Shown here one piece after another: positions 3,261 through 22,510 of a stretch of DNA of 47,131 bases. Numbering within the stretch: the first letter of the stretch is position 1; each line of letters opens with the position of its first letter. This stretch comes from an uncultured Planctomycetota bacterium (lineage in GTDB: Bacteria > Planctomycetota > Planctomycetia > Isosphaerales > Isosphaeraceae), in NCBI GenBank assembly GCA_963823665.1, contig CAWGMQ010000001.1, forward strand, positions 1 to 47,131. The letters run 5' to 3'. The notes under the pieces were generated by a model. That model did not search any database and was not told the DNA's origin. It was given only the letters and a program-made list of their open reading frames with translations. The position numbers and the translations under genes were made by a program.

Positions 3261-3345
3261 AGTCGTTGGGTGCTCAAGAAGGGCACTCAGACCTGTCGGC
3301 TACGGCGGCCTCGCCATGCGAACCAGCATGAGCGGGGTTTTTTTT
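3261..3345 (+). promoter_or_regulatory. dual-hairpin attenuator A (putative ANTAR target) upstream of hsp20
   Basis: P1 GGGTGCTC-AAGAA-GGGCACTC, P2 GGCT-ACGGC-GGCC; the P2 3' arm overlaps terminator GCCTCGCCATGC..GCATGAGCGGGG followed by T8. Confidence 0.8.
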
Positions 3346-3510
3346 CGCCCTGCCTGTCCGATGGCCGGACAATCGGGAGGAGCCGAGGTTTCTCCCACAA
3401 GTTTCTGCGGTGATGGCTGCCGCTCCCGGAGGTTGTGGGTTCTTCGCCCACCGGACGTCTGGGTGAAACGTGTGCATCGTGTGCACAACATCTCACGAAA
3501 GGAGACAGCC

Positions 3511-4099
3511 ATGACTGAGGTCAAAGAAGCTCCCAAGGTGAAGACCACCAATGGTCAGGGGCAGGTGAAAGCGCCTGCTGCTCAGACACCTGCCGAGATG
3601 CGGAACACGGAAGCTGCACCATTCGAGATGGTGCGCCGGTTCGCGGAAGAGATGGACCGGGTGTTCGAGGACTTCGGGCAAGAGAACCGGCTGGCATCTG
3701 CCAAGGTTCCTCGCTCGCGGCCGCAAGCTGTTCCGCCGCGGAGTCGGAGCGATGGCGACGGGATGGTCGCCCCGCGTTGACGTCGTGGAACGGGAGGGAG
3801 AGTTTGTGGTGCATGCCGATCTGCCGGGCATGACCAAGGAGGACGTGAACGTTGCGGTGACGGATGGAATGCTGACCATCGAGGGAGAGCGCAAGTGGGA
3901 CAAGAAGGAGGAGCGGCAGGGCTATGCGTACAGCGAATGCCGGTACGGGTCGTTCTATCGCTGCATCCCTCTTCCCGAAGGCGCAGACACCACGAAGGCT
4001 ACAGCCGAATTCCGCAAGGGCGTGCTGGAAGTGACGATGCCCACGGCACCGCGCCCGGAGCAGAAACTGCACCGGGTGGAGGTTCGTGAAGCTAGCTGA
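3511..4099 (+). CDS. Hsp20/alpha-crystallin small heat shock protein; apparent +1 frameshift near 3677
   Basis: RBS AAAGGAG before ATG 3511; PFEMVRRFAEEMDRVFEDFG in one frame, then WSPRVDVVE...DLPGM...YGSFYRCIPLPEG...GVLEVTMP in the next. Confidence 0.9.
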
Positions 4100-4126
4100 T
4101 GTTGCGATTCCTCTCTGCCGGGGGGC

Positions 4127-4166
4127 ATCGGGCGGGAACGTGCGATGCCTCCCGGCTCGACCTGGG
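4127..4166 (+). terminator. 14-bp GC-rich stem-loop between hsp20 and usp (terminator or mRNA stabiliser)
   Basis: GCCGGGGGGCATCG / CGATGCCTCCCGGC; the T-rich tract is displaced about 10 nt downstream. Confidence 0.45.
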
Positions 4167-4217
4167 CTTTTCTTGGTCCCGTGGCTGGCATATTTGCCCA
4201 TTTGGGGAGAACCTCCC

Positions 4218-5186
4218 ATGAAACCGTTTCGTACCATTCTGTTTGCAGCCGACTTTTCGGAGAACTCGAAAGAGGCTTTCAGCGTGGCTTGCTCGCTGGC
4301 GAAGGAGGACAAGACCCGGTTGCATGTCCTCTCGGTGGCCGGGCCCGACTGGGTGGCCGAGGACCCTGTGTTCCTCGCGCAAGCCAGCGCTCAGTTTTAC
4401 AAACAGCCGCCGGATGAGCACCGCCTCATGCTGCTGAAGGAGAGGCTGCGAGATGAGTACGCGCCCGACCATGCCGTCGACGTGGAGTACCATGCGGTGG
4501 CGGGCGATGTCTCCGAGCAGGTCCTTGCGATGGCCCGCGAGATCGGGGCGGACCTGATTGTGATGGGAACGCACGGAAAAACGGCCGTGAGCTGGCTCAT
4601 TTCCGGCAGCGTTGCCACCGCGGTGCTGCGGAGGGCGCATTGCCCGGTGCTGGCTCTACGGACTTCGGTTCATACCCGCAAGGGTGATGTGCCGCGGGTG
4701 ATCATGCACCCGACCGACTTTTCGGAGAATTCGCGAGCCGCGCTGGAGGTCGCGCGATTGCTGGCGCGAGACCACGGCGCGCGACTGGTCATCATTCATG
4801 TGACCGAGCCGGCGATCATGACGGACGGAACCGTGCTGGGCGAGGTCGATCCGGCGGCCTACCGCGCGAGCCTCGATGACCTTCGAACCGAGCTTGATGG
4901 ACCTGACCTGAAGTACCCGATCGAAACGCGGTTGATCCTGGGATATCCGCGTTATGAGATTCAGTCGACGGCCGAGGAGATCGGGTGCGACATGATTGTC
5001 ATGGGCACGCACGGGCGAAGCGCGCTGGGGCGGGTCTTGTACGGGAGTGTGGCGGAATCGGTTCTGTCGCGGGCTGCTACTTGCCCGGTGATGGTCGTGA
5101 AGCGTGCTGCTCCGGCGGCAGCGCCGTCGCGTTCCGAGAACGAGGGATCATCGGCCGCCGAGAAGAAAGCGGTGATTGTTTACTAG
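4218..5186 (+). CDS. universal stress protein, tandem USP domains
   Basis: two repeats of DFSENS...D(L/M)IVMGTHG...GSVA..VL..A.CPV; RBS GGGGAG. Confidence 0.95.
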   Translation: MKPFRTILFAADFSENSKEAFSVACSLAKEDKTRLHVLSVAGPDWVAEDPVFLAQASAQFYKQPPDEHRLMLLKERLRDEYAPDHAVDVEYHAVAGDVSEQVLAMAREIGADLIVMGTHGKTAVSWLISGSVATAVLRRAHCPVLALRTSVHTRKGDVPRVIMHPTDFSENSRAALEVARLLARDHGARLVIIHVTEPAIMTDGTVLGEVDPAAYRASLDDLRTELDGPDLKYPIETRLILGYPRYEIQSTAEEIGCDMIVMGTHGRSALGRVLYGSVAESVLSRAATCPVMVVKRAAPAAAPSRSENEGSSAAEKKAVIVY

Positions 5187-5359
5187 CCTTGTGGCCCCGG
5201 CTCACGCTGGGGCGGTCATCTTGAGGGGAGGGCCTGGTCATGAGCGTTTCAACCATCGCATCAATCGAAAGTACCTCCGTCGATTCGCACGCTCTGGCCG
5301 GCCGACCAGGTCATGGCTGTGAGTTGAGGTGAGCCGTCGATGCAAGTGCCTGGAAACTG

Positions 5360-5435
5360 GGGTGCCACGGGCCCGCGAGGCCGTCCTTATATTGGGCAGG
5401 GTTTGACAAGCGGCTCGCGATGGACCGTGGCACCC
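5360..5435. repeat. REP-like imperfect inverted repeat
   Basis: GGGTGCCACGGGCCCGCGAG ... CTCGCGATGGACCGTGGCACCC. Confidence 0.6.
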
Positions 5436-5537
5436 AATTTCTCTCATGGCGGTGGCTGTGCGCTCGGCGCTGTTGCAGACGGCCGGTCTGGCTCATTAGG
5501 ATGTCCGCATGCCGGAAACCCGCGAGGAGGACCCTGC

Positions 5538-6056
5538 ATGGTGGATAGTACCGCCCAGATCGCCGCGACCGGCCATCCAAGCGGCGACGAGCGGTTCCTG
5601 ATGCTCGACGCGGCGATGAAGCGCGTGCGGTATGCGCCTGAGGCGCTGATCGAGGTGCTGCACGTTGCCCAGAAACTCTTCGGGTGGCTGGATCACGGCC
5701 TTTTGCACTACGTCTCGCACGGGCTGAAGCTGCCTCCCAGCCGGGTCTACGGTGTCGCGACTTTTTACCACCTCTTCACCTTTGCGCCCCGGGGAGAGCA
5801 CACCTGCGTCGTGTGCACGGGGACGGCTTGTTACGTGCAGGGCGCGGGGCGGCTGATGGCCGCGGTTCGAGAATGCCTGGCGATCGATCCCGGGGAGACG
5901 ACGGCTGACGGCAAGGTCTCGCTGCTTGGCGCGCGATGCGTGGGAACGTGTGGGCTGGCCGTGGTCGTTGTTTACGACGGCGAGGTTGCCGGGGGCCAGG
6001 ATGCGGAGACAGCATGCGAGCGAGTGAAAGGATGGCTTGGCGATGGAGCTTGCTGA
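5538..6056 (+). CDS. hoxE: bidirectional hydrogenase diaphorase subunit HoxE
   Basis: [25 protein letters not shown], 2Fe-2S motifs CTGTACYV and RCVGTCG; RBS GAGGAGG. Confidence 0.92.
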
Positions 6057-7647
6057 TCTGGAGATGATCGCCGAGAGAGAGCGACTGGCCAGGAAGCCGG
6101 TGCGGATCCGATGCTGCACGGCCACGAGCTGTGTTCTGTCGGGGTCGCTACGAGTGGGAGAATCGTTGCGCGCAGCCGCTGGCGATGGCGGTCTGGGCGA
6201 CCAGGTTCAAGTGTGCGACGTCGGTTGCATGCGGCTTTGCTGCGAAGGACCGCTGGTGCAGGTCGATCCTGCGGGAGTGCTTTACGAGAGGGTTGATTCT
6301 GTTGGCGCGGCTACTATTGTGGCCGCCGCTGTGGGCGGGTCGGAGGCGACGGCGCGGCGGGGCGACCCACACCAGGCGTTCTTCGCCCGGCAGACGAGTA
6401 TCGTTCTCGAGAACAGCGGCCATGTCGAGCCGGGGCGAATCGAATCGTACATCGAGGCCGGGGGATATCGCTCGCTGCACCACGTGCTGCGGAATATGCG
6501 CTCGGGGCAAGTTGTCGACGAGATCATCAAGAGCGGCCTGCGCGGCCGGGGTGGGGCGGGCTACCCGACCGGCCTCAAGTGGGCCACCGTCGCCAAGCAG
6601 CCGCACGGACGGAAGTTCGTCGTTTGCAATGCCGACGAGGGAGATCCTGGCGCCTTCATGGACCGCAGCATCATGGAGAGCGATCCGCATCGGGTGCTGG
6701 AGGGAATGGCGATTGCTGCGTACGCAGTAGGCGCCGAGCGCGGCTACATTTATATCCGGGGCGAATATGCTCATGCGATCGAGCGGCTCGACGCTGCGAT
6801 CAAACAAGCGAGAGGCCTGGGTCTTCTGGGCAGCCAGATCTTTGAATCGCCGTTCGACTTCAGGCTTGACATTCGCATTGGGGCGGGGGCGTACGTGTGC
6901 GGCGAGGAGACTGCTCTCTTGCATTCGATCGAGGGCCTGCGGGGTGTTCCGCGGCCTCGCCCCCCCTACCCCGCCGAGAGTGGGGTCTGGGAATCTCCCA
7001 CGCTGATCAACAACGTTGAAACGTTTGCCAACGTGCCGCCGATCATCCGGGATGGCGGCGAGTGGTTTGCCGCGATCGGCACGGCGAAGAGCAAGGGGAC
7101 GAAGGTCTTCGCGCTGGCGGGGACGATTCGGCGGTCGGGGCTGGTTGAGGTTCCGATGGGCATGACCGTGAGGCAAATCGTGGAAGAGATCGGGGGCGGC
7201 CCTCCTCACGGAACGATCAAGGCCGTGCAGACCGGCGGGCCATCGGGAGGGTGTGTGCCGGAGGAGCACCTTGATACGCCGGTCGACTACGAGTCGCTCA
7301 CTGCACTCGGCTCGATGATGGGCTCGGGAGGGATGATCGTGATGGATCAAGATACGGATATGGTGGACATCGCGCGGTTCTTCATGGAGTTCTGCATGGA
7401 AGAATCATGCGGCAAGTGCATCCCCTGCCGCGCGGGGACGGTGCAGCTTCATCGTCTGCTTTCGCGGATCGGCGGGGGGCACGGCACGCGGCATGACCTC
7501 GAGACACTCGAAGCCCTGTGCGACATGGTGAAGCACACGAGTCTGTGCGGCCTGGGCCAGGCGGCGCCTAACCCCGTGCTCAGCACGTTGCGCTTCTTCC
7601 GTCACGAATACGAAGCAAAGATTCGCGAGGGCCAGCCATGTCTGTGA
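6043..7647 (+). CDS. hoxF: diaphorase flavoprotein subunit HoxF (NuoF-like)
   Basis: [10 protein letters not shown]-terminus, [53 protein letters not shown]. Confidence 0.95.
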
Positions 7648-8354
7648 AGACGTTGACTGTGAACGGCGCCGCGCTCTCGGCCCGCGAAGGTGAGACGATC
7701 CTTGAGACAGCGCGCGAAGCGGGGATTTCGATCCCGACGTTGTGTCACATGGAGGGAACCTCGGACGTGGGAGCGTGCCGGCTCTGCCTGGTCGAAGTCT
7801 CCGGCTCGGGACGCCTTGTGCCCGCTTGCGTCACGCACGTCGAGGAGGGCATGTCGCTCCAGACCGAGACGCCGCGGCTGCGGGACTATCGGCGGATGAT
7901 CATCGAGCTGCTGCTTGCCGAGCGGAACCACGTGTGCTCGGTGTGCGTGGCCAACAACAACTGCGAGCTTCAGGAGCTGGCGATCTCGCTGGGGGTGGAC
8001 CACGTGCGCTACGATTACTTGCACCCGCAATGCGAGGTTGATTTGACGCATTCGCGGTTCGGCATCGATCACAACCGGTGCGTCCTGTGCACGCGTTGCG
8101 TACGGGCGTGTGATGAGATCGAGGGGGCGCATACGTGGGACGTTTCGGGCCGGGGCACCAAGTCGCGCGTGATCAGCGATATGAACCAGCCCTGGGGCAC
8201 GTCGCCCACGTGCACGTCGTGCGGCAAGTGCCTGCAAGCTTGCCCGACGGGCGCCATCTTCGCTCAGGGCTCGACGGTCGCCGAATCGCGGCGCGACCAC
8301 GGCGTGCTGGCGTTTCTGGTGAACGCCCGGGAGAAGAAGCAATGGGACGTCTAA
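7638..8354 (+). CDS. hoxU: diaphorase Fe-S subunit HoxU
   Basis: [55 protein letters not shown]. Confidence 0.95.
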
Positions 8355-8882
8355 AGCTCGCGACCGTCTGGCTGGGGGGCTGTTCGGGATGTCATATGTC
8401 GTTCCTCGACATGGACCTCTTCCTCATCGATCTCGCCGCGCGCGTCGACCTCGTTTATTCGCCGCTGATCGATGTGAAGACTTATCCCGAAGGTGTCGAT
8501 GCCGTTCTCGTCGAGGGCGCCGTGGCCAACCGGGATCATCTTGAGATGATCCGGTCCGTGCGGCGCAACAGCCGCGTCCTTGTTTCGTTTGGCGATTGCG
8601 CGGTGACGGGAAACGTGACGGCGCTGCGAAATTCGCTTGGCTCGGCGGAGCCCGTGCTGCGCCGCTCGTATCTCGAGCAGGTCGACATCCAGGCGCAGAT
8701 CCCGTGCGAGGCAGGGATTGTCCCGCCGCTCCTGGACCGAGTGCAACCGGTGCACGCCGTTGTCAACGTTGATGTTTACCTGCCGGGTTGTCCTCCGCCG
8801 GCTGCGCATCCGCGCCATACTCGAGCAGCTTCTCGCAGGCGAACCAGCGCACCTCGAGGGCCGGAACATCAAATTCGGGTGA
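8342..8882 (+). CDS. hoxY: [NiFe] hydrogenase small subunit HoxY; apparent frameshift near 8805
   Basis: [34 protein letters not shown]; the C-terminus [14 protein letters not shown]...IKFG lies in another frame ending at 8882. Confidence 0.92.
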
Positions 8883-8949
8883 TATCAAGTAACGTCCCAC
8901 TGTCATTCCGGCGAGTGACGGTCTTCCATTCTCCCTTGAGGCCACCCTT

Positions 8950-10371
8950 ATGGGCCAGCGAATCGTGATCGATCCGGTGACGCGGATTGAAGGTCACGCG
9001 AAAATCACGATCGAACTGGGCGACGACGGCAAGGTAGCCGACGCGCGATTCCACGTGGCGGAATTTCGCGGCTTCGAGCGTTTCTGCGTCGGCCGCCCGG
9101 TGTGGGAAATGGCGGGCATCACGGCGCGTGTGTGCGGGATCTGCCCGGTCAGCCACCTGGTGGCATCGGCCAAGGCGGGTGACGAGATCATGGCGGTGAC
9201 GCCGCCTGACGGCGCGATCAAATTGCGGCGACTGATGAACCTGGCGCAGATCATTCAATCTCATGCGCTCAGCTTCTTTCACATGAGCTCGCCCGACTTG
9301 ATTCTGGGATTCGACAGCGATCCGGCGAGGAGAAACCTGTTCGGCCTGCTGGGAGCCGAGCCGGAGCTGGCCCGCGGCGGCATTCGCCTGCGTCAGTTCG
9401 GCCAGGAAATCATCGAGCAGCTTGGCGGCAAGAAGATCCACCCCGATTGGTCCGTGCCGGGAGGTTGCCGCGGGCCGCTCACCGAAGTGGGCCGCCAGGC
9501 CATTCGGGCGAGGATTGCCGAATCGCTCGCCATTTCGCTGGACGCATTGGGGCGATTCAAGGCGCTCGTGGGCCGGTATCAAGAAGAAGCCGATTCATTC
9601 GGTCAGTTTCCCTCGCTCTTCCTGGGATTGGTCGGACACGATGGGACGTGGGAGCATTACGATGGCAAGATCCGCCTGGGCGACTCGGCCGGCCATCTGG
9701 TTGCGGATGGTCTCGACGCCCAGCGCTACATGGATTGGATTGGCGAGGCTGCCGAGCACGATTCGTACCTGAAGTTCCCGTATTACAAGCCGCTCGGGTA
9801 CCCCGCGGGCATCTACCGCGTTGGACCGCTGGCGCGGCTCAACATCTGCGAGCGCATGCCGACGCCGGTGGCCGATCGCGAGCTGCGCGAGTATCGGGAC
9901 CGATTCGGAGTTGCCACATCGTCATTTCTCTATCATTATGCGCGGCTGATCGAGATCCTGGCGGCTGTGGAGGGCGTGGCGCTGGCGATTGAAGACCCCG
10001 ACGTCCTCTCGGAGCGTCTGCGTGCTCACGCCGGGGTGAATCGTCTCGAGGGCGTCGGTGTCAGCGAGGCGCCGCGAGGTATCCTGTTTCACCATTATCA
10101 GGTTGATGAGGACGGCAAGCTGACTCGAGTGAATCTCATCATTGCCACCGGTCAGAACGCCCTGGCGATGAACGGCACCGTCAAGCAGATCGCCGAGCAT
10201 TATATCGAGGGCCCCGAGATACCCGAGGGGATCTTGAACCGGCTGGAGGCGGGCATCCGGGCGTTCGACCCGTGCCTGAGCTGCTCGACGCATGCGGCCG
10301 GCATGATGCCTTTGCATGTGCAGTTGATCGACGGAAAGGGCCGAGTGAAGAGCGAGGTGTGGAGGAATTGA
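8950..10371 (+). CDS. hoxH: group 3d [NiFe] hydrogenase large subunit HoxH
   Basis: [13 protein letters not shown]1 motif [11 protein letters not shown]2 motif DPCLSCSTH plus cleavable C-terminal extension. Confidence 0.96.
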
Positions 10372-10892
10372 GGGTGATCGAGAGTAATGAATCATCAGCC
10401 GGACGCATCCTTGTGATCGGCTACGGCAACACGCTCCGGGGTGATGACGCGGTGGGACAGCGCGTGGCGGCGGCGGTCGCGAAGTGGCAGGTGTCCGGCT
10501 TGAGCGTAAGGGCGGAGCACCAATTGACGCCTGAACTTGCAGAGCCGGTGTCTCGGGCCGACATGGTCATTTTCGTGGACGGGAAGCTTGCGGGAGAGGA
10601 GGATGCCGTTACGGTGCGTGGTCTGGAGCCGTCGACTCACACGGACTTCGTTGGGCATACGAGCGACCCGCGGGGCGTGCTTGCGCTTGCACAGGCTGTG
10701 TACGGTCGTCATGCACCGGCGTGGCTGGTTCTGGTGCCGGGGCTGGACTTCTCGCTGCGCGAAGATCTATCGGCCGCCGCTGACCGGGGTGTTGCCGAGG
10801 CGATTGGACGAATTGCCGCATTGATCGGCGCGCAGGCGAGCAGATCAACGTTTAACTGCGGCCCGGGATGTCCAGAGCTTCTTCAGCCGTGA
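10368..10892 (+). CDS. hoxW: hydrogenase maturation protease HoxW
   Basis: [33 protein letters not shown] start overlaps the hoxH stop, RBS GGAGG. Confidence 0.88.
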
Positions 10893-11451
10893 GGATGATC
10901 TGGGCGATATCGATGAGCTTGCGATTCTTGTCGCTCGCCAGTTTCTGGAGGCGCCGGAAGGCGTCGTGTTCGTCGAGTCCAGTCTTTTTCATCAGGATGC
11001 CCTTCGCCTTTTCGATGACCTTTCGGTCTTCGAGAGCCTGCTTCAGGTCGGTGGTCTCCTTGCGGAGTGCTTGAAACTGTTCAAACCGACGCATTGCGAT
11101 GCCGATGGCGGGCTCGAGGTCCGACTGCTTGATAGGCTTGACCAGGTAGGCAAGGATGTGGTCCGCCTCGGCCCGGCGAATGAACTCCGGATCGTGATAT
11201 GCCGATACCAGGATAACCGGAATCGGCCCATTGTGGTAGATCTTCATGGCTGCATCGATCCCGTCCATGTCGGGCATCTTGATGTCCGTGATCACCAGGT
11301 CGGGGTGCAGTTGAGCGCAGAGTGCGATCAGCTCCTTGCCGTTCTGGGCCGCGCCGACTACCTGGTGGCCCAAGAGGGGGAGGATTTGCTGGAAGTAATC
11401 GCGCATGTCGCGCTCGTCATCGGCTACAGCGATCTTGAGCGAACGGGTCAT
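10852..11451 (-). CDS. response regulator with RNA-binding ANTAR output domain (NasT/EutV/PdtaR type)
   Basis: REC domain VADDE...ITDIKMPDMDG...YLVKP; ANTAR signature LEDRKVIEKAKGILM...EHDAFRRLQKLASDKNRKLIDIA. Confidence 0.95.
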   Translation of the reverse strand: MTRSLKIAVADDERDMRDYFQQILPLLGHQVVGAAQNGKELIALCAQLHPDLVITDIKMPDMDGIDAAMKIYHNGPIPVILVSAYHDPEFIRRAEADHILAYLVKPIKQSDLEPAIGIAMRRFEQFQALRKETTDLKQALEDRKVIEKAKGILMKKTGLDEHDAFRRLQKLASDKNRKLIDIAQIILTAEEALDIPGRS

Positions 11452-12905: not shown

Positions 12906-12909
12906 GAGC

Positions 12910-13671
12910 TCAATCCGCTCCGATGCCGGCCGCGCCGTGTTTCCTGGCGAGTTCATCGAGCGTCCGGAGCAGTTCCGGTACGTCGAAGGGTTTATAGCAG
13001 ACGGCGTCGGCTCCCTCGGCAAGCGTCTGCGCGACAAGGCTGTCCACTTCGGCTGAGAACCCCGTGATCAGGATGGTGTGCGCCCGTGGATTGGTCTGGC
13101 GGACCGCGCGGAACACGCCTGATCCATCACCGTCGGGAATTCGCATGTCGATCAGTACAACCTGGAATTCGGTGTTCTGGAGCTGCTCAGCGGCTTCGCG
13201 GTTTCCGTGCGCCAGACTGACGCGGAAACCTCGCTCGCGGAGCAGATCCCAGAGTGAGGTGCAGAGGTCACGGTCATCGTCTACGATCAGCACCAGTGGC
13301 TGTTCGAGCGCTTCGTCCACCAGGGATAGCAGCTCGTCGAAATCCACAGGTTTCGGGATGACCTTCCACGCACCGGCGGCCAGTGCTTCCTCGGCTGTGG
13401 CGGGTGTGGCGTAGGCCGTGACCAGGAGCGACACGGTTTCCGCGCGCCGTTTCTTGATTTCGCGGTAGAGGGTGAGCCCGTCCATTCCGGGCATTTTCAG
13501 GTCCAGCAGCGCGACATCGTAGGGCTGGCGGCTTATCAGCTCAAGCGCGCCCCTCCCATCGTGGGCGCAATCGACGTGAAAACCGAGGTCGGTCAGGATG
13601 TCGCTCAAATTGCGACAGATGTCCGGATCGTCGTCTACGACGAGTATCCGAGCCCGCTTTTCCGCAGTCAC
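12910..13671 (-). CDS. response regulator with two receiver domains and no output domain
   Basis: ILVVDDD...LLDLKMPGMDG...PKP and LIVDDD...LIDMRIPDGDG...YKP. Confidence 0.93.
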   Translation of the reverse strand: MTAEKRARILVVDDDPDICRNLSDILTDLGFHVDCAHDGRGALELISRQPYDVALLDLKMPGMDGLTLYREIKKRRAETVSLLVTAYATPATAEEALAAGAWKVIPKPVDFDELLSLVDEALEQPLVLIVDDDRDLCTSLWDLLRERGFRVSLAHGNREAAEQLQNTEFQVVLIDMRIPDGDGSGVFRAVRQTNPRAHTILITGFSAEVDSLVAQTLAEGADAVCYKPFDVPELLRTLDELARKHGAAGIGAD

Positions 13672-14846: not shown

Positions 14847-14875
14847 CTGCGACCTCCTGACTCCGGCTGAATTCC

Positions 14876-14970
14876 AAAAAAAATACCCACGTTCCACCGC
14901 CTGGTGGTAACGCGGGCCATCTCAACCCGTCCGGACAACCCAATCACGAGCTATCCGGGCAATCGACTTG
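14876..14970 (-). promoter_or_regulatory. dual-hairpin attenuator C upstream of the sensor operon
   Basis: minus strand: P1 CCGGATAGCTC-GTGATT-GGGTTGTCCGG, P2 GGGTT-GAGAT-GGCCC overlapping terminator CCCGCGTTACCACC-AGGC-GGTGGAACGTGGG then TA-T8; -10 TAGAAT at 14976-14971. Confidence 0.78.
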
Positions 14971-15091
14971 ATTCTACACAACAAGAAAAGCGGATGGGAA
15001 GGGCTTACCGACGATACGTAACCTGCTTCGAGCTGCTCCCGATGATTCGGTCGCGGGAGAGCTTGCTGTTTCGAGTTTGAGCAAGTAGGGG

Positions 15092-15120
15092 TTGACCGAT
15101 TGCGTCACTGCGGGTATGAT
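15092..15120 (+). promoter_or_regulatory. sigma70-like promoter of attenuator D
   Basis: TTGACC, 17-nt spacer, TATGAT. Confidence 0.75.
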
Positions 15121-15124
15121 TCCT

Positions 15125-15206
15125 GAGTCCTTGCTCACGACGGGCGAGTGATCGTCGGCTAAGGCGGCCCCGACATGCGAACATTCGCGCGTTGGGGTTT
15201 TTGTTT
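15125..15206 (+). promoter_or_regulatory. dual-hairpin attenuator D upstream of csrA-usp-adh
   Basis: P1 CTTGCTC-ACGAC-GGGCGAG, P2 GGCT-AAGGC-GGCC overlapping terminator GCCCCGACATGCGAA..TTCGCGCGTTGGGGT followed by TTTTGTTT. Confidence 0.82.
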
Positions 15207-15384
15207 GCGCCTCGCCGTCCATCTGTCTGGTGACCGGGGAACCAGGAAGCTCAGTCTTCCCGGACGCTTCGCGGTAATGGCTGCCGCACCCGTGCTTCGT
15301 TGGTGGTTCCCTCTATCCCTCGACGCAACCGACACAACGTACTACTGCCTTTCTTCACCTCGATGATCAAGGGAGTGCTCAGCC

Positions 15385-15603
15385 ATGCTCGTGCTTACCC
15401 GCAAAGTGAATGAGTCAATTGTGATCGACGGAGACATCACAATCAAAGTGGTCGGTGTCCGGGGCAACCAGGTTCGGCTCGGAATCACCGCACCGCCGTC
15501 ACGCTCGATCTACCGCTCCGAGCTTCGCGAACGCGCTGGCGGCAAATTCGCAGCGCGGCCAGCCGCAGTTCAGACCGAGACGCAGCACGCGATCAGCCGA
15601 TAG
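15385..15603 (+). CDS. csrA: carbon storage regulator CsrA family RNA-binding protein
   Basis: MLVLTRKVNESIVIDGDITIKVVGVRGNQVRLGITAP...IYRSEL. Confidence 0.92.
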   Translation: MLVLTRKVNESIVIDGDITIKVVGVRGNQVRLGITAPPSRSIYRSELRERAGGKFAARPAAVQTETQHAISR

Positions 15604-15653
15604 AGTAGCGTCCTTCATTATCCGAGAAGGCAACTGAATGGGAGGGAGTCGCC

Positions 15654-16505
15654 ATGCTCGCCAGCATCTTGATCGGCCTCGACCCGTTCTACTACAACGA
15701 TGAACGTCTGGATGCGATTATCGGCTGGGGAAAGCGCTCGGGCGCCACCTTGGTTGGTCTGGCCGCAATTGACGAGCCCGGTGTGCGCGCGATCGAGCCA
15801 GCCTCGCCCGTCGGCGGAACACCGGGCGTGGACCCGGTTCTTTACCAAGGCTACGAAGGTCGGCTGGCCGAGCTCAACCGCGAAGCCGACCTCGTCCTGA
15901 AGCGATTCGCCGCCCGCTGCGGCGAGGTGGGTGTCAGCCATTTGGAGCTGAAAGCATCCGGGGCACCGCACGAGCTCTTCGAGCGAGAGGCTCAATCTTG
16001 CGACTTGATCGTTTTGGCCCGAGGTGCCCGTTTCCGATTCCAGGCCCGCGACGATGAAGTTGACGACACGATCCAAAGAGTGTTGAAGAACGCACCTCGG
16101 CCGCTTCTCATCACGTCCGATGGCGAGTTAGCGTCAGGCGCTGTCGTCGTCGCCTATGACGGTAGCCTCCAGGCCGCTCGAGCTCTCGCGGCCTTCCAGG
16201 CGACCGGCCTCGGCGCGTTGGAGCAGGTGCATGTGGTCACGATGGACAGCAACACCCTCGACGCGACACGCCACGCTGATCGCGCAGTCAAGTTCCTTGA
16301 CTTTCACAAGATCGAAGCGATTCCGCACGTCTTACCGTCATCGCCCGATCCGGCCCACACAATCCTCGACCACGTTCGCCGCCTGGGAGCCGGCATGCTC
16401 GTGATGGGCGCCTACGGGCAGCCAATGTTGCGCGAATTCTTCGTTGGGTCCGTCACCCGTACCATCTTGACGGAGTGCCCGATTCCGGTCTTTTACTACC
16501 ACTGA
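15654..16505 (+). CDS. universal stress protein
   Basis: ASILIGLD, DLIVLA, VVVAYDGSLQAARAL, LVMGAYG...FFVGSVTRTIL. Confidence 0.9.
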   Translation: MLASILIGLDPFYYNDERLDAIIGWGKRSGATLVGLAAIDEPGVRAIEPASPVGGTPGVDPVLYQGYEGRLAELNREADLVLKRFAARCGEVGVSHLELKASGAPHELFEREAQSCDLIVLARGARFRFQARDDEVDDTIQRVLKNAPRPLLITSDGELASGAVVVAYDGSLQAARALAAFQATGLGALEQVHVVTMDSNTLDATRHADRAVKFLDFHKIEAIPHVLPSSPDPAHTILDHVRRLGAGMLVMGAYGQPMLREFFVGSVTRTILTECPIPVFYYH

Positions 16506-16557
16506 CCAATAACTTGAAATCGGCGACCGCGGTTGCTTCGGCGGGAAGGGCCAACAT

Positions 16558-17586
16558 TTGCGTGCGATGATTCTGAGTGCTCTGGGTGCGCTGGCTGACA
16601 ACCCGGCGCCACTCCGGCTGGCCGAGCTTGCCGATCCGTTACCGGCCAGTGGCGAGCTGCTGATCAACGTACACTCATGCGGAGTTTGCCACACGGAGCT
16701 GGATGAGATCGAAGGTCGGATGCCGCCGTCCCGATTGCCGATCGTGCTCGGCCATCAGGTCGTCGGGCGGGTCGTGGACTCGGGCGCGGGGACGAGTGTC
16801 TTTCGATCCGGTGAGCGGATCGGCGTCGCCTGGATCTTCTCCGCATGCGGAACATGCGACTTCTGTCGCCGAGGCGAAGAGAACCTGTGCGAACAGTTTC
16901 GGGCCACGGGCCGCGATGTTAACGGCGGCTATGCCGAGCTCATGACCGTGCCCGAGGCGTTTGCTCATCGAATTCCCGATGCCTTCACGGATGCCGAAGC
17001 CGCACCTCTCCTCTGCGCCGGCGCAATCGGATACCGGTCGTTGCGCCTGGCGGGCTTGCGCGATGGCCAAGACCTGGGATTGACTGGTTTCGGCGCCTCG
17101 GCGCATCTCGTGCTCAAGATGGTGCGATACCGTTATCCCCACGCCCGGACCTTCGTCTTCGCTCGCGCCGAGGCGGAGCGTGCCTTCGCACGTGAGCTCG
17201 GCGCAGCCTGGGCCGGTGACACGTTGGCGGAATCGCCCACGAGGCTCCACGCCATCATCGACACGACCCCCGCGTGGACGCCAATCGTCGAGGCGCTCAA
17301 GAATCTCGAGCCTGGCGGCCGGCTCGTGATCAACGCGATTCGAAAGGAGGATCGTGATCAGGATGCGCTGCTTCGCCTGAGTTATCCGACTCACCTCTGG
17401 AAAGAGAAGGAGATCAAGACGGTCGCCAATGTCACCCGCCAGGACGTCCGTGAGTTCCTCCAACTGGCCGCCGAGATTCCCATGAAGCCCGAGGTGCAGG
17501 AGTATGCCCTCGAGGACGCCAACGAAGCCCTCGTGGCACTCAAGTCGAGCAGCATCCGCGGGGCGAAGGTCTTGAGGGTCACTTGA
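16558..17586 (+). CDS. zinc-dependent alcohol dehydrogenase family protein
   Basis: CGVCHTEL, LGHQVVG, structural Zn motif CGTCDFCRRGEENLC, APLLCAGAIGYRSL, GFGASAH. Confidence 0.92.
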   Translation: MRAMILSALGALADNPAPLRLAELADPLPASGELLINVHSCGVCHTELDEIEGRMPPSRLPIVLGHQVVGRVVDSGAGTSVFRSGERIGVAWIFSACGTCDFCRRGEENLCEQFRATGRDVNGGYAELMTVPEAFAHRIPDAFTDAEAAPLLCAGAIGYRSLRLAGLRDGQDLGLTGFGASAHLVLKMVRYRYPHARTFVFARAEAERAFARELGAAWAGDTLAESPTRLHAIIDTTPAWTPIVEALKNLEPGGRLVINAIRKEDRDQDALLRLSYPTHLWKEKEIKTVANVTRQDVREFLQLAAEIPMKPEVQEYALEDANEALVALKSSSIRGAKVLRVT

Positions 17587-17615
17587 TGCCATTAGCGGCC
17601 TGAACAAAATAGCCT

Positions 17616-17644
17616 TTGGATTTTTGATCGCAGTTGATTATGCT
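17616..17644 (+). promoter_or_regulatory. sigma70-like promoter of attenuator B
   Basis: TTGGAT, 17-nt spacer, TATGCT. Confidence 0.6.
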
Positions 17645-17650
17645 GGAAGG

Positions 17651-17733
17651 GAGTCGAGTCGCTCACGATGGGTGATCAGATAGTGGCTATGGCGGCCCCG
17701 CCTTGCGTTTTATCGCAGGGATGGGGTTTTTTT
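17651..17733 (+). promoter_or_regulatory. dual-hairpin attenuator B upstream of a 100-aa gene
   Basis: P1 GTCGCTC-ACGAT-GGGTGAT, P2 GGCT-ATGGC-GGCC overlapping terminator GCCCCGCCTTGCG..CGCAGGGATGGGG followed by T7. Confidence 0.82.
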
Positions 17734-17783
17734 ACGCGCATCGGTTGCGGTGCACTAACGGTCGAACGGCAAGGAGCATTTCC

Positions 17784-18086
17784 ATGACGCCCAACCCGAG
17801 TGAAGTGATCGTGATCGCCGAGAATCATTCGTTCCATTCGGTGCACGGCTCGTCCGTCCACCATCGAGATTTTCCAGAGGTCAGGGGCGAGGGAAACTCG
17901 CCTGAGGATGCTGCCGAGCGCCTGGCCCAGCAGTTGTTCCGCACGCTTGACAGTGCGCCGAGCGACTGGCGCAGGGAGATCCTCAACCGGGCGATCGACG
18001 ACGTCCGCGCCTTTGCGAAACGAGAACACGCGGCATCCGCCTGCAGTCGCCCGGCCACCCCTGGATCCACGAGCGGCCAAAACTGA
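17784..18086 (+). CDS. hypothetical protein, possible HicB-like N-terminal fold
   Basis: RBS AAGGAG; HHRDFPEVRGEGNSPEDAAERL resembles the PDLPG...GxTxEEA pattern. Confidence 0.7.
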   Translation: MTPNPSEVIVIAENHSFHSVHGSSVHHRDFPEVRGEGNSPEDAAERLAQQLFRTLDSAPSDWRREILNRAIDDVRAFAKREHAASACSRPATPGSTSGQN

Positions 18087-18137
18087 TTAGAACGTACAAT
18101 CTTGATGAAGGACCCGGGTGCTTCTTCGGCGCCTCGC

Positions 18138-19130
18138 TCAGCGAGCCAGCTCGCTCAGCAACGTCAAGAGCGAGGTCGGAACGACCTTCGGCTGGGTCCA
18201 GGTCTGCGAGAACGGCGTGAGCACAAGCTGCCCCTGGATCTCACCCACCATTTTATTCGTTTGACCCTCGTGTAGTGCGTCAATTGCGAAAGCCCCCATC
18301 CGGCTCGCAAGCACTCGGTCGCGAACGGCCGGGGCGCCGCCGCGCTGCAAGTGCCCGAGCACGAGCAGCCGCGTGTCGAACGCCGCGCCGCGCTCTTTCA
18401 ATTCCTGTCCGATTCGATGCACACCTCCGGCGATGGCCCCCTCGGCGACGATCACGATCCACGACGTCTTTCCGCAGCGATGTTCTTCGATCAGGCGTGC
18501 GATCACGTCATCGACGGTGAAAGGGGATTCGGGTATGAGCGCCGCATCGGCGCCAGTCGCGAGCGCCGTGTAAATGGCGATCTGGCCGCTGTGACGGCCC
18601 ATCACCTCGACGAGGAAGAGGCGCTCGGTTGCATCGGCGGTGTCGCGAATCTTGTCCACGGCTTCTGCGGCCGTGCTCACCGCGCTGGTGAAGCCGATGC
18701 TGACATCCGTTCCGGCAAGATCGTTGTCGATCGTCCCTGGGCAACCGATCACCTCCCCTTCCCAGTACCGTGAAAGCTCGACGCAGCCACGAAACGTGCC
18801 GTCGCCGCCGATCGCCACCAGGTGGTCGATCCGGTGTCGTCGCAATACGTCGGCCGCCGCTCGCATGCCTTCTTCGGTTCTGAATCGCTCACAACGGCTG
18901 GTGTGCAGGATCGTACCTCCGCGATGAATGATGCCCGAGACACTCCGGAGGTGCATCTGCCGATCATTCCGATGAAACGAATAGTAGAAATCCTCCTCGA
19001 GCATCCCCTGGTAGCCACGACGGATGCCGATGACTTCGTCACCAAGCGGGAGCGCGGCCCGAACAACCGCGCGGATGCACGCGTTCATACCTGGGGCGTC
19101 GCCGCCGCTCGTGAAAACTCCGATACGCAA
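18138..19130 (-). CDS. pfkA: ATP-dependent 6-phosphofructokinase
   Basis: RIGVFTSGGDAPGMNA, GGTILHT, IGGDGT, PGTIDND, VEVMGRH, LGHLQRGG; TTG start after GGAGGAG. Confidence 0.95.
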   Translation of the reverse strand: MRIGVFTSGGDAPGMNACIRAVVRAALPLGDEVIGIRRGYQGMLEEDFYYSFHRNDRQMHLRSVSGIIHRGGTILHTSRCERFRTEEGMRAAADVLRRHRIDHLVAIGGDGTFRGCVELSRYWEGEVIGCPGTIDNDLAGTDVSIGFTSAVSTAAEAVDKIRDTADATERLFLVEVMGRHSGQIAIYTALATGADAALIPESPFTVDDVIARLIEEHRCGKTSWIVIVAEGAIAGGVHRIGQELKERGAAFDTRLLVLGHLQRGGAPAVRDRVLASRMGAFAIDALHEGQTNKMVGEIQGQLVLTPFSQTWTQPKVVPTSLLTLLSELAR

Positions 19131-19212
19131 TGTCCTGCTCCTCCCGTAGCGTCGCACCTGCCCTTTTCGCCGTTCGCGTGTTGCCGAGCCCTGACAGGAC
19201 ACGCAGCAACGC

Positions 19213-19992
19213 CTACTTGCCTTTGAATGCGGGTTTCCGCTTCTCCAGAAATGATTGGATGCCCTCCTGATAGTCCTCACTATCATAAACCTGCCGCCGC
19301 ATGCCTTGGAGCCGCTCAAATGTCTCCGGGCTCTGAGGACGTGCCTCGGCCAGCACCCTTAGCTCCTCTTTGAAAAGCGCGATGCACAGCGGCGATGTCT
19401 CCGCGATCCGGGCGGCAATCTCCCGCGTCACATCTTCAATCTCGGTCGCGGGAACGACGGCGTTGACCATTCCGACTCGGGCAGCCCGCTCAGCCGGGAT
19501 TGGCCGAGCCGTGAACAGCATCTCCTTGAGCAGCGGCACCCCGATCGATTTCATCATATTCAAGATGCCCACCATGTTATAAGGCACGCCCAGCTTGGCC
19601 GGAGTGAACGCGAAGGTCGCGGAGGGCGCGGCGATGACGATGTCGCAGGTAATCACGACCTCGCAGGCGCCGCCCCAAACGCTCCCCTCGACCAGCGCGA
19701 TGATCGGCACGGGTGTCGACTCGATCGCGCGCACGACGCGGCGCAGTGGGTCGTCGTACGCGAGCGGATCACGCCCATGCGCGGGCAGCTCCGATACATC
19801 GTGTCCCGCCGACCACACCACCGCGCCGGCCTTCGCCCGCAAGATCACGGATCGCACACCGGAGGCTGTCATTTGGTCGAGAGCCGAAATCAACTCCTCG
19901 ATCACCACTCTGGAGAGGGCATTGCGCTTCGCTTCGTGATTGAGCGTGATCGTGCCGGTGGCGCCTTCAATCGTCGTGAGCACAAGCGGCAC
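19213..19992 (-). CDS. scpB: biotin-independent methylmalonyl-CoA decarboxylase (crotonase family)
   Basis: SAGHDVSELP.HGRDPLAYDDPLR, EGSVWGGA, LGVPYN, FERLQGMRRQVYDSEDYQEG closely follow E. coli ScpB/YgfG as I recall it. Confidence 0.88.
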   Translation of the reverse strand: MPLVLTTIEGATGTITLNHEAKRNALSRVVIEELISALDQMTASGVRSVILRAKAGAVVWSAGHDVSELPAHGRDPLAYDDPLRRVVRAIESTPVPIIALVEGSVWGGACEVVITCDIVIAAPSATFAFTPAKLGVPYNMVGILNMMKSIGVPLLKEMLFTARPIPAERAARVGMVNAVVPATEIEDVTREIAARIAETSPLCIALFKEELRVLAEARPQSPETFERLQGMRRQVYDSEDYQEGIQSFLEKRKPAFKGK

Positions 19993-20050
19993 AAGATCCT
20001 CCCCCTGGATGTTCCACCGAAGTGTCAAAGCACCCCGGTGACCGGCCGGC

Positions 20051-21709
20051 CTATGAATGATACTCGCCAAATACCTCGCGCAGCACCCCGCAAATCTCAC
20101 CGGTGGAGCAATACGCTCGCACGGCGTCAAGGATCGGCGGCATCAGATTTCGTGACTCCTCCGCGGCAACGCGACGCAGCGCCGCGAGCGAGGTCGCGAC
20201 CGCGCGACTATCCCGCTGCGATCTCACTTGATTGAGCCGGTCGATCTCGCGCTGACGAACCTCTTCGCCGACCTCAAACATGTGCATGTGCGGCGCCTCG
20301 TCGTCAGTGTGGTCGTTCACTCCGACAACGATCCTCTCCTTCTTGTCAATCCCGCGTGACCATTCAAACGCGGTGCGATCGATTAATTCTCTCACGATTC
20401 CGCCTTCGATCGCCGCGACCATTCCGCCCATCTCGTCGATCTGCTTGATGAGCCGCTCGGCCTCCGCTTCGATCGCATCGGTCAGATGCTCCACATAGAA
20501 GCTTCCGCCTAGCGGGTCCACGGTGCTGGTGACACCCGTTTCATAAGCAATCACTTGCTGCGTGCGAAGCGCCAGTCGCACCGATTCTTCACTCGGCAGC
20601 GCGAGCGCCTCATCCTTGCTGTTGGTGTGCAGGCTCTGCGTTCCTCCGAGCACGGCGGCCAGCGCCTGGAGGCTCACCCGCACGACGTTGTTCTCCGGCT
20701 GCTGTGCCGTCAGTGTGGCACCGCTCGTCTGCGTGTGGAACCGCAGCATCATACTCTCGGCCTTCTTGGCCTGAAACCTCTCGCGAATGATTCGGGCATA
20801 AAGCCGGCGAGCCGCACGGAACTTGGCGATTTCTTCGAAGAAATCCGAATGTGCCGCGAAGAAGAACGCCAGCCGCGGCGCGAAGTCGTCGATGTGCAAC
20901 CCTGCCTTGAGGGCTGTTTCGATGTAGCAGATCGCATCCGCGAGTGTGAACGCAAGCTCCTGCACCGCCGATGCACCTGCCTCGCGAATGTGATATCCGC
21001 TGATCGAGATCGTATTCCAGTGCGGCACATTCCGGCTGCAGTACTCGAACGTGTTCTCGATCAGACGCAGGCTCGGCTTGGGTGGAAAGATGTATGTGCC
21101 GCGCGCGATGTACTCCTTGAGAATGTCGTTCTGGATCGTACCCCGCAGTTGCACCGGATCGATCCCCTGCTTTTCCGCGACAGCCACGTACATCGCGAGC
21201 AGAACAGCGGCAGGGGCGTTGATGGTCATCGACGTCGAGACCTGGTCGAGCGGAATGCCGTCGAAGAGGGCCTCCATGTCGGCAAGCGTGTTGATCGCCA
21301 CGCCCACCTTTCCGACTTCACCGACACAGAGAGCATGGTCCGAGTCGAGACCAATCTGCGTGGGCAGGTCGAATGCGATGCTGAGCCCGGTCGATCCCTG
21401 GGCCAGAAGATATCGATTGCGTTTGTTCGATTCCTCGGCGGTCGAATACCCTGCGTACTCGCGCATAGTCCAGAGCCGGCCGCGGTACATCGTCGGATGG
21501 GCACCGCGGGTAAACGGAAACGTCCCGGGAAACCCAAGCCGGTCACGATAGCGATCGACGCCATCCTGGTCGGGCAGGTAGAGCCTCTCAACCGGCAGCC
21601 CCGACGCCGTCGTGAAGCTCTCACTCCGCTCCGGGAAATGGGCGAGGGAATCCTTGAGCGCGCCCTCCGACCACTTCGCCGCGTCGTCTTCAATGTCCCG
21701 CGGAATCAT
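20051..21709 (-). CDS. methylmalonyl-CoA mutase, substrate-binding (large) subunit
   Basis: [64 protein letters not shown]; no fused B12 domain. Confidence 0.93.
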
Positions 21710-21781
21710 CGAGCTACTGCCCTCTCTTGGTCGTCGACCTTGGACTTCAAAGCCGCCGCAATCGCGGCTTCGAGCGTGAAT

Positions 21782-22195
21782 TCATTCGACGCTTGCATGG
21801 CTCCGTTCCTCGAGCATTCGTTCGATCGAGGTCAAAATCGAATCCGCCGAGGCGCCAGGTGTGAAGATCGCTTTCACGCCAATCCCGCTCATGTAGGCAA
21901 AATCGTCCGGGTGGATCAGCCCGCCGCCGAACACCAGAATACTCTCGGCCCCTCTTTCCGCAAGCAGGTCGATCACGCGTTTGAAATGGACCTTGTGCGC
22001 TCCGCTCATCACCGAGAGCCCGATCGCGTCGACATTTGCCTCGATCGCCATATTCACGATCTCTTCCGGGCTGCGGCGGATGCCCGTGTAGAGCACCTCA
22101 TAGCCCGCGTCGCGCAGCAGTTGGACGATGTACTTCGCCCCGCGGTCGTGTCCGTCAAGGCCCGGTTTACCGATCAAGATGCGTCCCTTGGCCAT
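21782..22195 (-). CDS. cobalamin-binding (small) subunit of the mutase
   Basis: KPGLDGHDRGAK (DxHxxG), IGLSVMSGAH, FGGG. Confidence 0.93.
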   Translation of the reverse strand: MAKGRILIGKPGLDGHDRGAKYIVQLLRDAGYEVLYTGIRRSPEEIVNMAIEANVDAIGLSVMSGAHKVHFKRVIDLLAERGAESILVFGGGLIHPDDFAYMSGIGVKAIFTPGASADSILTSIERMLEERSHASVE

Positions 22196-22207
22196 CACAT
22201 CAGCCCT

Positions 22208-22408
22208 TCACGTGGACATCCACCAGATGCAAAGTCCCACCAGAACGGTGCCCGCGATCACCCACAACGTGATCCGCACGACCAGCCGATAACCCGGATC
22301 AATCGGTCGAACGTGATGGGTGTGCGTGGGATGATGGGCCGGCTGGACATGCTTCGCATGATGCGGTTGCTTCGGCGGCTGTTCCGAGCCACTCGGCTGT
22401 GTGTCCAT
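22208..22408 (-). CDS. 66-aa His/Pro-rich protein with a C-terminal transmembrane helix
   Basis: ATG 22408 after GGGGGTGA, directly downstream of attenuator E; PHHAKHVQPAHHPTHTHH then ITLWVIAGTVLVGLCIWW. Confidence 0.6.
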   Translation of the reverse strand: MDTQPSGSEQPPKQPHHAKHVQPAHHPTHTHHVRPIDPGYRLVVRITLWVIAGTVLVGLCIWWMST

Positions 22409-22421
22409 TTGAGTCACCCCC

Positions 22422-22510
22422 AAAAAAACGCCCGCGTGACCGCTCACTGGCGATCGCACGGGCTGCCGCAACCCCGGTTTGCCCGCCCCTCGTGAGCAAG
22501 CAAATGACCC
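22422..22510 (-). promoter_or_regulatory. dual-hairpin attenuator E upstream of the mutase-scpB-pfkA operon
   Basis: minus strand: P1 TTTGCTTGCTC-ACGAG-GGGCGGGCAAA, P2 GGGTT-GCGGC-AGCCC overlapping terminator GCCCGTGCGATCGC..GCGGTCACGCGGGC then G-T7. Confidence 0.82.

Follow-up and report, generated by a model that had tools for sequence, protein, structure and literature searches.

Searches for the targets of ANTAR-domain proteins rely on models in which the loop must have six bases, with A at position 1 (A1) and G at position 4 (G4). In the eutP leader, the available text of PMC3369931 places the loop adenines at positions 29 and 53, i.e., 24 nucleotides (nt) apart. On the protein side, the accessible part of PMC8934654 attributes to EutV a single base-specific contact, made with one flipped-out loop base that is assigned to G4 and held by R142, E160, and Y164, and it reports that alanine changes of N173 and R175 drastically reduce binding. 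In actinobacteria, lineage-specific covariance models gave ANTAR RNAs with a more variable motif, hexanucleotide loops still being required, and some of these RNAs act on translation by covering the ribosome-binding site (RBS) or the start codon (PMC8164766, in the portion available). Here, we describe a leader RNA that is present five times in a 47,131-nt stretch of DNA (positions 1 to 47,131 of contig CAWGMQ010000001.1, assembly GCA_963823665.1; this whole stretch is hereafter called the window) from an uncultured planctomycete of the family Isosphaeraceae. With a probability of about 0.7, each copy acts in cis as an ANTAR-type leader that attenuates transcription but uses a changed loop code, and it is read by a phosphorylated REC-ANTAR regulator. 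The support for this ANTAR reading is strong but circumstantial, and the binding is predicted.

In every copy the parts follow the same order, i.e., a first hairpin (P1), a linker, a second hairpin (P2), a terminator, and a co-oriented gene, which begins 30-200 nt beyond the terminator. A first-pass annotation of this DNA had announced five copies with particular loops, and all five were found where it had placed them and with these loops. Copy c1, on the + strand, has its P1 core at 3272-3284, within a full hairpin of 10 base pairs (bp) at 3266..3290 whose loop AAGAA occupies 3276-3280, and its P2 at 3298-3310 (GGCU-ACGGC-GGCC, loop ACGGC). Copy c2, on the - strand, has its P1 core at 14951-14938, within an 8-bp hairpin at 14934..14955 bearing the sole 6-nt P1 loop of the five, GUGAUU (GTGATT in the DNA); its P2 core, with the loop GAGAT, lies at 14927-14915, within the full hairpin CGGGUU-GAGAU-GGCCCG at 14913..14929. 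Two further copies are on the + strand: c3, with its P1 core at 15133-15145 (full hairpin 15130..15148, loop ACGAC) and its P2 at 15157-15169 (loop AAGGC), and c4, with its P1 core at 17661-17673 (full hairpin 17658..17676, loop ACGAU, ACGAT in the DNA) and its P2 at 17685-17697 (loop AUGGC, ATGGC in the DNA). Copy c5, on the - strand, shows an 11-bp P1 hairpin at 22478..22504 (core 22497-22485, loop ACGAG) and the P2 hairpin GGGUU-GCGGC-AGCCC at 22460..22474 (core 22473-22461, loop GCGGC).

These five copies share a P1 inner part of the form GCUC-loop-GGGY, a linker of 10-13 nt, and a P2 of 4-6 bp of the form GGYU-loop-RGCC. Read from the sequence, the distance between the loop starts is 24 nt in c2-c5 and 26 nt in c1, in agreement with the annotation, and minimum free energy (MFE) folds bear out its further claims that the outer P1 stems vary yet keep pairing and that a hairpin with a T-run follows each of the five copies. 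Its mention of an RGTC near each predicted start site stood only in part: each of the five copies does have RGTC 8-17 nt ahead of GCTC, but relatives do not conserve the 5' flank, and we therefore give it no meaning. In the window (G+C content of 62%), the P1 pattern has 16 matches for 7.67 expected, a number reached in 0/100 shuffles, and the P2 pattern has 8 matches for 2.62 expected, reached in 1/100 shuffles. Over the host assembly (16.46 Mb in 12 contigs, 91.9% complete, 3.5% contamination), the joint P1-linker-P2 pattern gives 7 matches versus 3 for the reversed pattern, and 5 of these 7 fall inside 20 kb of the window.

Loops and terminators were counted over 76 matches, 43 from one set and 33 from ANTAR-centred loci. 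The loop is 5 nt long in 72/76 P1 and 73/76 P2 hairpins, and G occupies the third position of every one of these 5-nt loops (72/72 and 73/73). Position 4 is A in 65 and G in 7 of the 72 P1 loops, and a purine in 70/73 P2 loops (G 49, A 21); position 1 is a purine in 70/72 P1 loops and A in 64/73 P2 loops; position 5 of the P1 loop is free (T 27, C 22, A 14, G 9). The consensus of the motif is GCUC-RNGAN-GGGY with a variable outer stem for P1 and GGYU-ANGRY-RGCC for P2. The departure from canonical ANTAR loops that had been claimed for this motif holds, since the rule (6 nt, A1, G4) fails in every register. Among 66 instances, any A1/G4 hexaloop hairpin is seen in 7, at scattered positions, and two in a single one (1/66); by the same simple rule, a dual NNGRN pentaloop is present in 59/66. 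On the contrary, the fallback proposed with that claim, a 7-nt loop with G at position 4 obtained by opening the closing pair, is disfavoured: the P1 closing pair covaries and that of P2 stays paired, so that genuine 5-nt loops with G at position 3 are the preferred reading. A naive "longest stem" call yields many 3-nt loops, which we rejected as an artefact of positions 1 and 5 being often pairable (A-U, G-U); position 5 being unconstrained, the pentaloop reading was retained. The comparison with Rfam that the annotation had called for revealed no matching family. Indeed, Rfam 15 gives 0 matches at gathering score over the window, and searching the five copies at E <= 5-10 gives chance matches only, to long non-coding RNA and small nucleolar RNA models. 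The leader is thus ANTAR-antiterminator-like, yet, under the current definition, it lies outside the family of canonical ANTAR-target RNAs: loop length and the A1/G4 residues were both tested, and neither agrees with that definition.

The secondary structure was evaluated on an alignment of the 66 instances. In this alignment, 94.5% of the cells pair versus 85.8 +/- 0.7% in shuffles, none of which (0/500) matches the observed value, and pairing falls to 32-59% when the partners are slid by 1-3 columns. Compensatory changes, which had been suggested as a check, are present at 5/11 pairs, in 72 cells, and they back P1 up to and including its closing pair (C-G 59, U-A 3, A-U 1, G-C 1, and U-G 1; n=66). 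RNAalifold yields the same P1 and P2 helices. The slid controls and the variety of pairs in the outer part of P1 are hard to explain otherwise than by a real structure. P2, for its part, is nearly invariant and shows one-sided changes only (C-G to U-G; closing U-G to U-A or C-G). Two U-G wobbles are conserved, at the second pair from the P1 loop (64/66) and at the closing pair of P2 (50/66); conserved wobble pairs are typical of protein-recognition helices. The linker between P1 and P2 is variable in sequence, mostly of 9-16 nt and occasionally longer, and the element thus consists, like ANTAR targets, of tandem short hairpins separated by a short linker.

A further characteristic of ANTAR targets, a P2 that is mutually exclusive with an intrinsic terminator, is also observed. 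A terminator hairpin of at most -10 kcal/mol that ends within 3 nt of a T-run is present in 70/76 instances, and its 5' arm takes bases of the P2 3' arm in 68 of these 70 (2 nt in 44, 3 in 17, 4 in 4, and 1 in 3). Since the stem shares these bases, the formation of P2 and that of the lowest G-C pairs of the terminator are mutually exclusive. Release at an intrinsic terminator depends on the pairs that adjoin the U-tract; a P2 that is held closed should therefore prevent termination. In the window, the c1 terminator (3309..3345, + strand) is made of a hairpin at 3309-3337 and a T-run at 3338-3345, with CC (3309-3310) common to the P2 3' arm; that of c2 (14871..14916, - strand) of a hairpin core at 14916-14880 and a T-run at 14879-14871; that of c3 (15167..15206, + strand) of a hairpin at 15167-15198 and a T-run, with GCC common to the P2 3' arm; that of c4 (17694..17733, + strand) of a hairpin at 17694-17728 and a T-run, the MFE fold taking up the whole 4-nt 3' arm of P2; and that of c5 (22422..22463, - strand) of a hairpin at 22463-22430 and a T-run at 22428-22422. 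On the upstream side, promoter scoring detects sigma-70-like sites ahead of c1 (3229..3258, + strand; TTGACT, a 16-18 nt spacer, and TATTTT; 9/12), c2 (14971..15000, - strand), and c3 (15092..15120, + strand; 10/12), and scores none at c4 and c5.

We propose that the leaders are read by a protein of the same locus. The host genome encodes two ANTAR-domain proteins and one of them is in the window: P0001, a REC-ANTAR response regulator of 199 amino acids (aa) encoded at 10852..11451 on the - strand, as the last gene of the operon behind c2. It matches the Pfam families Response_reg (85.2 bits) and ANTAR (PF03861, 76.8 bits versus a cut-off of 27.3) and, over its full length, Rv1626 (E 2.9e-38) and EutV (E 1.2e-32). 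The operon, on the - strand, starts with a protoglobin histidine kinase (14846-13668), followed by a REC-REC protein (13671-12910) and by a REC-PAS hybrid kinase ending at 11448; the stop and start codons of the four genes overlap and the c2 leader stands at the operon head, while c3 precedes a csrA operon that is divergent from this sensor operon. A protoglobin kinase (at least 50% identity) is found upstream and on the same strand in 31/56 planctomycete ANTAR loci, 44 of the 56 including at least 3.5 kb of upstream sequence, versus 0/24 loci from other phyla. In many ANTAR loci, motif copies are present both at the head of the protoglobin-kinase operon and divergent from it. Two cultured species, Singulisphaera sp. 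PoT and Tundrisphaera lichenicola, have an ANTAR orthologue with the protoglobin kinase upstream and a motif copy upstream of the ANTAR operon, on the opposite strand.

The co-occurrence of regulator and motif was determined over the 36 other genomes of the family, a P0001 orthologue being defined by at least 55% identity. When the orthologue is present (24 genomes), the motif is found in 22 and gives no match in 2; when the orthologue is not found (12 genomes), the motif is found in 4 and gives no match in 8. A second ANTAR paralogue (32-43% identity) is still encoded in 11 of these 12 genomes; hence, the motif follows the P0001 lineage specifically. We also compared the residues that contact the RNA, using a EutV-P0001 alignment in which the chain numbering is that of the paper plus 2. 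EutV R142, E160, Y164, N173, and R175 align with P0001 R143, E161, F165, D174, and N176, respectively. R143, E161, and F165 do not vary among the 49 planctomycete orthologues, and the 9 other-phyla homologues and the paralogue have them as well. At the site of EutV R175, the 49 orthologues never carry R (N in 44, S in 4, G in 1); R is found there in the paralogue, EutV, Rv1626, and 7/9 other-phyla homologues. Two positions further, the orthologues have K or R, the paralogue and 7/9 other-phyla homologues P, EutV R, and Rv1626 T. As a correlation drawn from sequence, a guanine pocket that is kept next to a backbone-contact residue that has changed is what would be expected if the loop had lost one base. 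The flanks of Chloroflexi ANTAR homologues, which have R at the EutV R175 site, were searched for canonical dual hexaloops followed by a T-run, giving 0 versus 3 in reversed controls.

The motif is not restricted to the window. The two joint-pattern matches outside it (C4:1223732 and C6:1481639, on other contigs of the host) show the P1 and P2 hairpins together with a terminator hairpin; a promoter-like site and a T-rich tail are seen at the C4 copy alone. With a covariance model built from the seven joint-pattern copies (R1), the host genome yields ten places at 27.5-58.7 bits, taken as credible copies; three of them had not been seen before, and all three have a terminator and a promoter-like site. 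The matches below approximately 26 bits (13/23) lie in sequence resembling open reading frames (ORFs); because of this coding-like context and their lack of promoter or terminator, they were discarded as chance matches. R1 finds the motif in 26 of the 36 other Isosphaeraceae genomes, at 1-22 copies each, and, with strict filters, in 0/24 genomes from eight other families of the class. An improved model of 66 sequences (R2), run on a phylum-wide sample, gives single weak matches in 3/150 genomes, a figure that does not imply absence since the strict filters scored 37 candidates per genome. Weaker, recognisable copies stand beside orthologous ANTAR operons in Pirellulales and other planctomycetes (e.g., loci L099, L082, L083, and L093); in the other families of the class, the ANTAR-centred loci gave only such weaker matches.

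Several observations can be added on individual copies and on the host. The copy at G000:C6:1481631-1481687 (locus L013; 54 bits) has a terminator hairpin without a clean T-run and no convincing ORF within 340 nt, and it may be a degenerated copy, or else an independent RNA. In one relative, two copies are arranged in tandem (L038:1501-1557 and 1589-1652) ahead of a NiFe hydrogenase small-subunit gene, the second one with a 12-nt insertion inside its P1 loop. The genes of the window have their nearest public relatives in Isosphaeraceae. The host genome, of 16.46 Mb, and that of a genus-mate, of 16.1 Mb, are very large, most of the family members searched having 2.4-14.3 Mb. Among public sequencing runs, no RNA run is listed for the locus, which appears only as small DNA shares in soil and rhizosphere metagenomes.

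The genes located behind the leaders point to a common theme. Behind c1 (3511..10371, + strand) are a small ORF, HSP20, Usp, and a HoxEFUYH-like bidirectional NiFe-hydrogenase cluster; behind c3 (15385..17586, + strand), csrA, Usp, and a zinc alcohol dehydrogenase; behind c4 (17784-18086, + strand), a 100-aa ORF; and behind c5 (18138..22408, - strand), a 66-aa ORF, a B12-binding subunit with methylmalonyl-CoA mutase, an enoyl-CoA hydratase, and a phosphofructokinase. Over 81 candidate ORFs downstream of the motif in relatives, the first of which begins 21-460 nt after it, Pfam identifies BON (15), CsrA (9), protoglobin kinase (7), Usp (3), PFOR (3), HSP20 (2), and CBS (2), and once each a NiFe hydrogenase small subunit, a sigma-70 factor, DUF2339, PRPP synthetase, and MerR-B12. 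The nickel/cobalt uptake genes that characterise NiCo-AnGGAG RNAs are not what follows the motif; BON, CsrA, Usp, HSP20, hydrogenase, and PFOR genes are found instead. Two candidate alternative readers, DUF3842 (PF12953) and CooT (PF10133), gave no match in the host genome; for DUF3842 this negative is weak, since the control genomes gave no match either. Taken together, the downstream genes suggest an oxygen or stress regulon (stress, dormancy, and fermentation). Two neighbouring features are worth recording. CsrA-family matches number ten in the host genome and 2-17 in each of 61 planctomycete genomes, an unusual multiplicity for a global regulator, the paralogue of the motif regulon being located at 15385-15603 of the window. 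Directly upstream of c1, positions 415-3207 (+ strand) encode a 930-aa fusion of an ADP-forming acyl-CoA synthetase and a GNAT acetyltransferase, with CoA-binding, succinyl-CoA-ligase-like, ATP-grasp, and GNAT domains, an architecture of the Pat-type protein acetyltransferases.

From these elements, the following mechanism can be proposed, in which three points are inferred, namely that the ANTAR protein binds the RNA, which way regulation goes, and which signal is sensed. Transcription would start at the sigma-70-type promoter and P1 would form first; the RNA would then adopt either P2 or the full terminator, whose bottom 1-4 bp use the P2 3' arm. When the regulator is absent, the terminator would be completed and transcription would stop about 75 nt after its start. 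When the REC-ANTAR regulator (11451-10852) is phosphorylated, it would bind both pentaloops through their flipped central G and keep P2 closed; the terminator would by this way lose the G-C pairs beside the U-tract, and the polymerase would read through. The regulator would itself be the output of a phosphorelay begun by the haem (protoglobin) histidine kinase, encoded in the same operon with its own leader copy. As a haem kinase heads the relay, the signal is probably O2, NO, CO, or the redox state. The controlled set would comprise BON, CsrA, Usp, HSP20, NiFe hydrogenase, PFOR, and CBS proteins, as well as fermentation enzymes.

Other explanations of the same leader have to be weighed. The attenuator could be read by another RNA-binding protein, such as a CsrA paralogue or an unknown factor, the ANTAR gene being merely a member of the regulon. 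The P2 and P4 loops (P4 being a further hairpin of long leaders, described below) read ANGGY and would make a candidate for a CsrA-type site, csrA is among the commonest genes directly behind the motif (9/81 ORFs, plus c3), the host holds 10 CsrA-family matches, and the motif departs from the canonical ANTAR loop. However, CsrA proteins recognise GGA, and no loop contains GGA, the P1 and P3 loops (RYGAN) being even devoid of GG. Moreover, CsrA is present in 61/61 genomes searched, including all 34 without a motif match, and therefore does not track the motif, whereas the ANTAR orthologue does. We consider a reader other than the ANTAR protein unlikely for these reasons.

The units of about 75 nt from promoter to terminator might, on the other hand, be multicopy trans-acting small RNAs, for instance decoys titrating a protein as EutX does; the available text of PMC8934654 documents an RNA that acts as a decoy for EutV, the units do have a promoter-like site and a strong terminator, and the copy at C6:1481631 is without a convincing gene behind it or a clean T-run. 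Yet the five window copies and nearly all those of relatives stand directly upstream of a co-oriented gene belonging to conserved families, and the P2-terminator overlap, which a constitutive small RNA would not need, is kept in 68/70; these constant neighbours and this conserved competition make a trans-acting family very improbable. A conserved structured leader that adjoins a terminator and precedes heat-shock and stress genes could finally evoke a riboswitch or a protein-independent sensor of a small molecule or of temperature acting on the terminator. We give this idea almost no credit, as conservation is confined to two tiny loops of 5 nt and the pairs adjacent to them, with no conserved internal loop, junction, or pseudoknot from which a ligand pocket might be made, with a linker that varies in sequence and in length (9-16 nt, occasionally more), and with no match in Rfam.

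The reading as an ANTAR-type attenuator must, for its part, be balanced against several points that weigh against it. The canonical loop rule is found in no register. P2 shares few bases with the terminator, mostly 2-3 nt, whereas a canonical P2 is embedded in the terminator arm. The alignments used for the counts were fitted to the model and are thereby biased towards its structure and its loop length, and P2 pairing rests mainly on its 98.5% of paired cells, with no two-sided change. As to the co-occurrence, two genomes (G032 and G036) have the orthologue but no motif match, and four have the motif with no orthologue found, in assemblies that are 72-87% complete; since related genomes are not independent, the co-occurrence also overstates its weight. 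Lastly, orthologues of 57-62% identity from other families of the class are accompanied by no motif at E <= 0.01 with strict filters.

A second pair of hairpins extends some of these leaders. In 19/76 matches, c1 and c3 included, the terminator is followed by two more pentaloop hairpins, P3 and P4; the relatives concerned are L035, L036, L040, L042, L045, L051, L052, L059, L062-L064, L067, L072, L074, L076, L077, and L122. In c1 (+ strand), P3 is UGUCCG-AUGGC-CGGACA at 3355..3371 and P4 is GCGGUG-AUGGC-UGCCGC at 3407..3423; in c3 (+ strand), P3, with the loop GUGAC, is at 15226..15238 and P4, GCGGUA-AUGGC-UGCCGC, at 15271..15287. The consensus is GUCCG-RYGAY-CGGAC for P3 and GCGGUA-AYGGC-UGCCGC for P4, and RNAalifold applied to 18 long leaders returns exactly these two helices, variable hairpins lying between and after them. 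P4 is almost invariant and has, like P1, a U-G as second pair from the loop, and the P3 to P4 loop types repeat the P1 (GA) to P2 (GG) order. The loop and 3' arm of P4 are complementary to the start regions, made up of the start codon and the bases that immediately precede it, at 3497-3514 and 15371-15388 (CAGCCAUG in the window; CGGCAGCAUG in many relatives). The energy of this P4-start duplex beats at least 70% of background windows in 17/18 leaders and is among the best 5% in 5/18 (median fraction 0.106). This modelled complementarity suggests a translational layer, in which a protein-held P4 would free the start site. Extending the proposal further, a planctomycete ANTAR lineage may have recoded its target from the A1/G4 hexaloop to the central-G pentaloop alongside the R175-to-N switch, placing under a haem-globin relay an oxygen/stress regulon that combines P1/P2 antitermination with P3/P4 unmasking of the start codon; this complete scenario we put forward as tentative, with less than even chances of being right in all its parts.

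To our knowledge, almost no gene regulation has been characterised in Planctomycetota. If our interpretation is true, the circuit would run in planctomycetes from a globin-coupled kinase relay to RNA antitermination on hydrogenase, PFOR, Usp, HSP20, BON, and CsrA genes. A pentaloop lineage would also mean that searches based on hexaloops overlook whole regulons, and it would offer a natural test of ANTAR loop-size specificity, the contacts with G being kept and the R175 position changed. The model can be tested at the bench, as the cultured Singulisphaera sp. PoT and Tundrisphaera lichenicola carry both the operon and the motif. In the literature, our search joining ANTAR with pentaloops returned no relevant paper; that on Planctomycetes, Isosphaeraceae, and Singulisphaera gave no ANTAR system among the matches listed; and that joining ANTAR with globin-coupled kinases gave only a domain-architecture listing for photoglobins. 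In the part of the supplements of Ramesh 2012 (PMC3369931) that was available, no planctomycete is named.

Compared with the ANTAR-target RNAs of EutV, NasR, and AmiR, as far as the available parts of PMC3369931 and PMC8934654 describe them, the leader has in common two small 5'-leader hairpins, conserved loop residues including an invariant G, a second hairpin that competes with an intrinsic terminator, several targets per genome, and a REC-ANTAR gene inside a regulated locus that bears its own leader copy; its loops are spaced by 24 nt, as they are in eutP. It differs from these canonical targets, in the same described features, by its loops (5 nt, G at position 3, and purines at positions 1 and 4, instead of 6 nt, A1, and G4), by a terminator overlap limited to the bottom 1-4 pairs, shorter than that described for eutP, by the conserved U-G wobbles placed second from the P1 loop and closing P2, by the two pentaloop hairpins that long leaders add after the terminator, and by a stress/low-oxygen regulon where canonical targets are nitrogen or ethanolamine genes. 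On the protein side, the R175 site of EutV is occupied by N in the cognate lineage. With the actinobacterial RNAs described in the accessible portion of PMC8164766, the relation of P4 to the start region may offer an analogy, since some of them cover the RBS or the start codon; our motif differs from these RNAs, for which hexanucleotide loops are described there, by its pentaloops, and has terminators in 70/76 instances. The closest solved relative of P0001 is Rv1626 (PdtaR). Another parallel concerns the genes under control. In mycobacteria, the haem sensor kinases DosS and DosT act with DosR to control Usp, Hsp20 (alpha-crystallin), CBS-domain, and fermentative/redox genes, the output being DosR, a DNA-binding activator. 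The likeness of our system to the DosR regulon is one of function and content only: there, the output is a DNA-binding activator, whereas here it would be an RNA-binding antiterminator.

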